Shown here piece by piece: positions 50,370 to 50,627 of a stretch of 64,000 nucleotides of DNA. Source of the stretch: Candidatus Saccharimonadota bacterium (GTDB lineage Bacteria; Patescibacteriota; Saccharimonadia; Saccharimonadales; Saccharimonadaceae). Where the stretch lies: assembly GCA_017405225.1 (NCBI GenBank), contig JAFRAV010000010.1, positions 1,862 through 65,861 of the forward strand. Direction: 5' to 3'. A model generated the notes under the pieces. That model worked only from the letters and a program-made list of their open reading frames with translations, did not search any database and was not told where the DNA came from. Each line of letters begins with the position of its first letter. Positions within the stretch are counted from its first letter, which is position 1. Both the position numbers and the translations under genes were made by a program.

Positions 50370-50627
50370 TGGTCCTACCTCTTCACCCAGTATGGCTATG
50401 GCGATAATCAGGATGGAGCTACGGGACTAAAATCATACCCACTAGATTATGTCTACTCCGGCAACTACTACTGGGGTACTGGTCGCTTATACTTCCAGGG
50501 TAACACTGCGTACTTGTGGTCTTCTACTATCGTTAGTAGTACCGATGCTTACAGATTGAATACTTGGTCGACGGTTGTGCGGCCTGCAGCATCCGATAAT
50601 AAGGCACGCGGGCTCGCTCTCCGTTGA
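50370..50627 (+). pseudogene. Start-less fragment of a FISUMP/Fib_succ_major-like (C-type-lectin fold) C-terminal domain, DGR variable-repeat-like
   Basis: Own translation: WSYLFTQYGYGDNQDGATGLKSYPLDYVYSGNYYWGTGRLYFQGNTAYLWSSTIVSSTDAYRLNTWSTVVRPAASDNKARGLALR-stop; the frame is closed upstream by TGA at 50337 and has no ATG. Confidence 0.65.

Follow-up and report, generated by a model that had tools for sequence, protein, structure and literature searches.

Saccharibacteria are obligate epibionts with minimal genomes, and to our knowledge the ways in which they recognise and switch hosts, and evade host defences or phages, are largely unknown. The locus considered here comes from a member of Saccharibacteria G3 (Nanosyncoccus), a clade in which one congener bears the name Candidatus Nanosyncoccus alces. 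It lies in a stretch of 64,000 nt, referred to below as the window, on contig C26 of the source assembly (G000), which comprises 643,622 bp in 46 contigs at 40 % GC and is 96 % complete. Here a reading frame of 85 codons that lacks a start codon is found between two housekeeping genes, and the question raised is what such a fragment is for, if it is for anything. The answer that we favour, with a probability of about 0.72, is that it is a silent donor cassette, one of a library that supplies the tips of a full-length gene by homologous recombination. It would then most likely be a donor cassette of a recombinational surface-variation system, which is a known kind of system but one that has not been described in this phylum.

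The reading frame and its setting

The frame, which we call cassette W, occupies positions 50370–50627 on the forward strand and consists of 85 codons followed by a TGA stop (50625–50627). Its translation is WSYLFTQYGYGDNQDGATGLKSYPLDYVYSGNYYWGTGRLYFQGNTAYLWSSTIVSSTDAYRLNTWSTVVRPAASDNKARGLALR, corresponding to a start-less C-terminal third of a Fib_succ_major-like lectin domain. It is located in a 675-nt gap, the unique flanks of which are an acetate kinase gene on the left (48884–50140, reverse strand; the identical gene in another assembly matches the Pfam model Acetate_kinase) and dnaJ on the right (50816–51736, forward strand). The original prediction for this locus described a frame with neither start codon nor N-terminal part, and this was borne out, there being no ATG, GTG or TTG in frame before 50514. 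It was also correct in placing the stop at a cysteine codon, as W reads CGT-TGA where around 30 paralogues read CGT-TGC, and most copies end in GCTCTCCGTTGC (Leu–Arg–Cys). Together with four to five private substitutions at otherwise fixed sites, this stop may mean that W is a slightly damaged, perhaps decaying, donor.

Base composition had also been taken as telling. W does contain less adenine than the window as a whole (22.5 % versus 30.9 %), but the depletion is modest and places it at the 2.8th percentile of 258-nt windows. The adenine-free runs of 13, 16 and 20 nt that had been read as a sign of mutagenesis are likewise present (50513–50525, 50572–50587 and 50607–50626), but runs of at least 20 nt occur 40 times on the forward strand of the window, where 37 T-free runs are also found, so that such runs alone carry no signal.

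Kinship with Fib_succ_major proteins

The predicted FISUMP-type domain was followed up with profile searches, in which W alone matched no model in Pfam or NCBIfam and PF09603 matched two of 18 paralogues at an E-value of around 0.007. The full-length protein P0168, which carries W and is described below, reaches E=0.0016 and 19.1 bits against PF09603, which is under the gathering cut-off of 33.9. Full-length homologues from congeners pass this gathering score (59.6 and 43.6 bits), and a profile made from the cassettes matches the C-termini of the congener homologues with E-values down to 5e-9. The congener ORFs that have a homologous C-terminal tip range from 345 to 2389 aa. The family had thus been named correctly, and the Fib_succ_major (FISUMP) kinship of W appears to be real, if indirect, as it is reached through homology to these congener proteins. 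A profile search of the PDB with the cassette alignment gave no match, and an AlphaFold2 model of P0168 from an alignment of 61 sequences was unusable, with a mean pLDDT of 46.

The only large Fib_succ_major-type surface protein of the genome is seemingly split over two contig ends (C25:1460–2602 and C18:1066–1977), one part being a 381-aa N-terminal portion with a signal or transmembrane segment and the other a 304-aa C-terminal domain that is 33 % identical to the cassettes. A 242-aa ORF at C8:14562–15287, directly before a phosphoketolase-like gene, corresponds to the N-terminal module of such surface proteins alone and stops where its relatives continue.

A library of start-less cassettes

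W had been described as an orphan, a view that did not survive a search of the assembly, where it belongs to a genome-wide library. Around 35 cassettes, 50–91 % identical to W, were found at some 20 loci, either singly or in head-to-tail arrays of up to four, in both orientations even inside one array. Nearly all are stop-to-stop frames of around 90 codons, and most are bracketed by the hairpin repeat discussed in the next section. Six further cassettes, of which two point one way and four the other, form an array on contig L060 (6900–9150) that bridges contigs C46 and C38 of the source assembly. As the organism’s own assembly lacks this array, the count of 35 understates the true repertoire, and the library comprises at least 40 start-less copies in the strain, in arrays of up to six.

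Three blocks, all read on the forward strand in W, can be recognised in the cassettes. Block 1 (nt 10–48 of each cassette; 50379–50417 in W) is a near-invariant 5′ anchor of 39 nt, CTCTTCACCCAGTATGGCTATGGCGATAATCAGGATGG, which has a mean entropy of 0.065 bit and is kept even where the rest of the copy is only 50 % identical at the protein level and its synonymous sites are saturated. Block 2 (nt 49–93; 50418–50462) shows ordinary divergence among copies, mostly at third codon positions. Block 3 (nt 94–258; 50463–50627) is VR-like, contains 15 hypervariable codons and ends in a 3′ anchor (50616–50627) that reads GCTCTCCGTTG(A) in W and GCTCTCCGTTGC in its paralogues. The two anchors are the left and right limits of the replaced tracts described below.

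The divergent cassettes have a pS of 0.62 against a pN of 0.31–0.37, giving a median dN/dS of 0.3–0.44, and 11 of 12 keep an open frame; among full-length cassettes the 85-codon frame is open in 30 of 31. That fragments without a start codon are kept readable, and share an anchor that is invariant at the nucleotide level, argues for their use as coding material elsewhere.

The flanking inverted repeats

The first base of W is abutted by a palindromic element (50165–50369, forward strand), a hairpin of around 170 nt made of two inverted copies of a terminal repeat, with a folding energy of −50.5 kcal/mol (z −12.4). Within it, a 78-nt arm at 50173–50250 (forward strand) is 92 % complementary to a right-hand arm at 50661–50738 (reverse strand). 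A conserved junction motif, CCAAGCTTCTTAAAGGATGCCCTGTACA (50631–50658, forward strand), separates the cargo from the right terminal repeat, and each of its seven genomic copies lies just inside a right terminal repeat. The terminal repeat itself has around 55 copies across the genome. Most of them are at contig ends, nearly all 46 contigs end in an outward-pointing copy, and the complete elements that lie inside contigs each adjoin cassettes, from which we conclude that the arrays break the assembly.

The element has terminal inverted repeats, is small and non-coding, and is present in many copies, all of which are traits of MITEs, although no clear target-site duplication was seen by eye at the copy in the window. 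It resembles the Correia elements of Neisseria, which are also short, non-coding MITEs bounded by inverted repeats, with dozens of intergenic copies that often follow stop codons and form a long hairpin. Unlike these, many of the copies here enclose cargo, either cassettes or a tail module of around 300 nt. An Rfam search of the flanks of W returned spurious plant miRNA-precursor matches only, to the long hairpin.

Several details of these repeats may be recorded. The terminal repeat, TAAyATGyGGTCTTCCCAG...GTAATTTTAAGTCAT (window 50165–50369 and 63937–64000), often starts exactly at the TAA stop of the upstream gene, and several copies have a partial duplicate around 37 nt upstream. The tail module is GC-rich (…GACAGGCGACACAAGCCGGCCCGTGGGCTGCATATAGCC…), is framed by the inverted words AGGGCATCC and GGATGCCCT, and in many repeat-bounded elements is placed between the last cassette and the right terminal repeat; it is seen at C46:1–230, at C3:1–150 and at the starts of C9, C10, C21, C35 and C23, is absent beside W, and gave no match in Rfam. 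A perfect small hairpin, GGATTTTCCA-N(2–6)-TGGAAAATCC, is found at the outer ends of several cassette arrays (C2:13655, C6:8, C28:3092, C38:11549, C43:26533 and C45:97).

With such a setting, W and its paralogues could be inert debris, a MITE-like element having captured the 3′ end of a surface gene and spread it in copies that are now functionless and decaying. The place of W within an element with 78-nt inverted repeats and some 55 terminal copies would fit this, as would its missing start, its stop at the cysteine codon, its private substitutions and the two internal stops of one paralogue. It is nevertheless very improbable in our view, because the frame is open in nearly every full-length cassette, dN/dS is well below one while synonymous sites are near saturation, the 39-nt anchor is invariant in all copies, and identical or mosaic copies of cassettes are carried by full-length genes in other samples.

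Hypervariable codons and the possible footprint of a retroelement

Among 18 close copies, the hypervariable codons of block 3 are 32, 34, 36, 42, 45, 46, 48, 59, 64, 69, 74, 76, 77, 80 and 82. In these 15 codons the mean entropy is 1.51 bit at position 1, 1.60 bit at position 2 and 0.21 bit at position 3, with position 3 fixed as C or T in 13 of them, and adenine is the modal base at 20 of the 27 hypervariable sites. The other 39 codons of the block have entropies of 0.21, 0.18 and 0.39 bit at the three positions. This is the pattern that AAY template codons of a diversity-generating retroelement (DGR) produce. It is not a general property of the domain, since a family of 19 full-length paralogues in the congener G011 shows ordinary divergence with variable third positions.

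DGRs are also common among the relatives of this organism. DGR-type reverse transcriptases (RTs) were found in 18 of 24 congeners, and where congener DGRs act on the homologous domain end, the mismatches between template repeat (TR) and VR are all at template adenines and the repeats are 196–210 nt long; blocks 2 and 3 of the cassettes together measure 210 nt. DGRs with targets of the C-lectin or FISUMP type, such as those of Bordetella phage Mtd, Treponema TvpA and the CPR, diversify the same domain end as varies in the cassettes, over a similar stretch of around 200–210 nt.

It might be supposed, therefore, that W is a remote orphan VR of a currently active DGR whose RT, accessory gene and TR are on unassembled DNA (an unbinned contig, a phage or a plasmid), and that the cassettes are rewritten in trans by adenine-mutagenised cDNA. 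The position-1 and position-2 hypervariability with its modal adenines would be explained, as would the length of blocks 2 and 3 and the frequency of RTs in congeners. The residues that the alignments contain at the 13 NNY codons all belong to the set encoded by NNY, and the third positions of the other block 3 codons barely vary, as would be expected after recent homogenisation. Against this stands the content of the assembly. The original prediction had noted that no RT is in the window, and the same holds for the whole 96 %-complete assembly, in which nothing matched RVT_1 (PF00078) and tblastn gave no match with three congener RTs or with the accessory proteins of these. No copy with A at all hypervariable sites was found that could serve as the template repeat, and differences among the copies extend to non-A sites. 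Block 3 also contains 12 adenines that show no variation, one of them a synonymous adenine in the GCA of codon 73. W is identical in four other assemblies, the tips that have been swapped between samples differ at many non-adenine positions, an active DGR gives no role to the invariant 5′ anchor that lies 45 nt upstream of the first hypervariable codon, and in the congener G024, where a DGR occurs alongside 32 cassettes, the arrays are not matched by the TR. We therefore consider an active DGR to be improbable.

The check proposed for near-copies, that mismatches should fall opposite the adenines of a template, thus gave a divided result, with the excess at positions 1 and 2 and the modal adenines on one side and the invariant adenines and missing template on the other. 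Much the same is true of the DGR reading as a whole: a footprint is present and congeners have DGRs, but RT and TR were not found, W is stable and replacements involve other bases than adenine. With no RT, no all-A copy and 12 invariant adenines, the DGR signature would seem to be a footprint only, the source of which is absent or unassembled. Three origins had been offered for W. A captured mutagenised cDNA can be rejected, as the upstream anchor retains 10 invariant adenines in every unit, and so can an atypical template repeat, as adenines are lacking from the hypervariable sites of W and no RT was found. The evidence favours the third, a silent donor for gene conversion.

The cassettes differ from DGR systems in further ways. 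There are at least 35 copies here, whereas among the 372 DGRs surveyed by Wu et al. (2018, PMC5758913) no element had more than eight targets and those of CPR usually had a single one. Unlike DGR targets, the cassettes have neither start codon nor gene body, undergo exchanges that are not adenine-specific and possess an invariant upstream anchor.

A full-length gene and the exchange of its tips

A donor would require an acceptor, and a candidate for this was found in other ENA and Logan assemblies that were reached by protein searches and represent the same strain (99.8–100 % identical in unique flanks). Three of the contigs concerned, L068–L070, are short MEGAHIT contigs. In the first to be considered, L069 (ERZ27256797, 1208 bp), nt 1–429 are the end of contig C27 and nt 737–1208 are window positions 50369–50840, identical at 472 of 472 nt. 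It encodes P0168, a protein of 263 aa with a signal-anchor-like start, a constant body of 178 residues and W as its tip, including the TGA and identical over 258/258 nt; nt 430–602, the middle of the full-length gene, are missing from the source assembly. L070 (ERZ28019011) has the same C27 flank and body, but its tip equals the silent cassette C38_11531 over 234 contiguous nt and its product, P0229, is 290 aa long. A derivative of the gene in which around 400 nt are deleted lies at the end of C37, in the C37/Bro-N locus, where AGGAGG-N4-ATG precedes a frame of 124 aa. This ATG had been considered as the sole expression site, which the longer gene body ruled out.

Contig L068 (ERZ28019072 k141_5984) has a 1-nt deletion at nt 200–215, reading CCATCAGC where CCATACAGC is found elsewhere, and the frame of the gene body is broken; the deletion may have arisen in assembly, mark a pseudogene or act as an on/off switch.

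Exchange in place is seen at a site represented by L065 and L071, which come from two samples. The flanks are identical over at least 1.3 kb on either side, with a Bro-N gene downstream, but the tips are only around 55 % identical in protein. The differing tract starts right after block 1 and ends at GCTCTCCGTTGC, and the replacement changes many non-adenine positions. In L066, which has the same upstream flank, nt 95–258 of the tip equal a silent cassette of the C46–C38 array on L060, and another cassette follows the tip.

The mosaic structure of tips was assessed by a greedy parse of six long-form tips (nt 94–258) into exact matches to silent cassettes. They required 1, 2, 4, 7, 10 and 11 donor segments, compared with 15.8±2.3 (minimum 10) under a null of independently drawn codons and 13–30 for silent cassettes parsed leave-one-out. 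Four of the six can thus be clearly recognised as copied from one silent cassette or put together from a few segments of several. The two that need 10 and 11 segments are marginal against the null, perhaps because their donors may be missing from the assembled repertoire. The segment count was used in place of the absence of novel bases, which is no evidence of mosaicism when all four bases occur at the hypervariable sites anyway. All tip variants were compared between samples rather than within one clone.

The donor locus itself appears undisturbed. The order acetate kinase gene (ackA), palindromic element, W and dnaJ is identical over 730/730 nt in a 44-kb contig from another sample, and two further assemblies contain an identical silent W locus, making three in all, one of which comes from the sample of L068. 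The sequence of W itself recurs with 100 % identity in four other assemblies of the strain.

A complication is that the upstream part of the gene is joined to three unique downstream flanks, with L069 continuing into dnaJ, L068 into the Bro-N locus and L070 into a third. These joins could reflect inversion events at the anchor, or the contigs may have been assembled across cassettes that are duplicated. L069, for example, might have been built across a W that exists in two copies, although a second W behind a long upstream extension would still be implied; one contig with the silent arrangement begins just after W, as expected if W is there twice. The former possibility leads to a different reading, in which recombination at the 5′ anchor is reciprocal rather than gene conversion, and a genome-wide system akin to shufflons or vsa moves promoter and gene body to the cassette loci by inversion. 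Besides the three flanks, cassettes in both orientations even within one array would agree with this, as would an imperfect 16-nt dyad, TATGGCTATGGCGATA, that can be read in the anchor. Yet both flanks are unchanged in the L065/L071 replacement, the ackA–W–dnaJ order is intact in those three other assemblies, even in that from the sample of L068, short contigs from de Bruijn graphs can pass across a cassette that is duplicated, and no dedicated invertase was identified, an XerC/D-like integrase being all that was seen in passing. Shufflons and the vsa locus of Mycoplasma pulmonis do share with the present system a single promoter and 5′ gene part with alternative 3′ segments, each beginning at a short conserved sequence, but they differ from it in that the cassettes here are dispersed over the whole chromosome and are replaced in situ between constant flanks. 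Reciprocal inversion therefore seems unlikely to us, though it deserves some weight.

A model of silent-cassette recombination

Under the favoured reading of W as a silent donor, the final 85 codons for a small, secreted, lectin-like protein would be stored in the strain at least 40 times, in copies that have neither promoter nor start codon. These would stand alone or form arrays of up to six, at around 20 loci bracketed by MITE-like inverted repeats. The acceptor would be the full-length gene of around 263–290 aa, made up of the signal-anchor-like N-terminus, the constant 178-residue body and the tip, with its 124-aa derivative as a second acceptor. A whole cassette, or segments of several, would be copied into a tract that has the invariant 39-nt anchor as its left limit and GCTCTCCGTTGC as its right limit, and the donor would stay unchanged. 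We infer that the exchange is a RecA-mediated, non-reciprocal gene conversion; a RecA is encoded at C8:7467–8249. The protein is presumably exposed at the surface and may bind a ligand on the host bacterium or animal.

Comparable systems are pilE/pilS in Neisseria, msp2 in Anaplasma, vlsE/vls in Borrelia, MgPar in Mycoplasma genitalium and tprK in Treponema. As in these, there are many promoterless, 5′-truncated copies of the variable part of one surface-protein gene, arranged in short head-to-tail arrays at several loci beside small repeat elements, and conserved blocks flank the variable part. The expressed copy would likewise be a whole silent copy or a mosaic of several, and the donors would stay unchanged, as judged here by comparing sequences across samples. 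Unlike them, the cassettes are found in an epibiotic CPR bacterium with a 0.64-Mb genome and not in a pathogen of animals that have adaptive immunity. They belong to a Fib_succ_major/C-lectin-like protein, the mutations in the silent copies follow a DGR-type pattern, the elements that enclose the arrays have inverted repeats at their ends, and there are at least two acceptor sites (the full gene and the 124-aa derivative). No initiating structure such as the G4 of pilE was seen.

The hypervariability of the cassettes at codon positions 1 and 2 may be the frozen output of an ancestral DGR, or of one on DNA outside the assembly. It is conceivable, though we would hold it only tentatively, that DGR output has been archived as silent cassettes and spread by MITE-like elements, so that the recombination of cassettes now varies the surface protein, either replacing reverse transcription or adding to it; the recurrence of the cassette system in other Nanosyncoccus species is part of this idea.

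Implications for epibiont biology

Full-text searches of the literature found no description of cassette-based variation in Saccharibacteria. If the archive of DGR output is real, this would be, as far as we could find, an undescribed cassette-type system of surface variation in the Candidate Phyla Radiation. A 0.64-Mb genome that devotes several percent of its length to spare tips for one lectin-like protein points to a key contact molecule, and the cassette system is a testable candidate for variation in host range or for immune evasion. The finding of both DGR mutagenesis and silent-cassette recombination on one protein module suggests that one can feed or replace the other. There is also a practical aspect, in that repeat-bounded arrays fragment short-read assemblies, so that MAGs systematically lose expression sites and possibly retroelements.

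Cassettes in other species

A search of 40 relatives did not recover the cassette DNA, JGI metagenome contigs did not contain the 5′ anchor, and a cassette profile search of a genome-contig collection found nothing. Three other Nanosyncoccus species have 12–32 short-frame copies each. Congener G024 (L083–L087 and L082) has 32 copies, which occur in arrays with units of around 230 nt and show the same excess of position-1 and position-2 variation. This congener also has a classical DGR with its own local target (TR at L082:61–330, VR at L082:680–945, 14 mismatches), which was considered as the diversifier of its cassette arrays and rejected, given that its TR does not match them.

A library of representative proteins yielded 212 relatives of W, including in-frame tandems of 68-aa units and tandems of whole-domain units of around 200 aa. 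In another species, a 94-kb contig (L072, WILK20-1 scaffold_632) carries four tandem whole-domain units of around 200 aa (FIDGTV…RC) at 10000–12900, which are in different frames, have no signal peptides and lie directly downstream of a PemK-type toxin gene.
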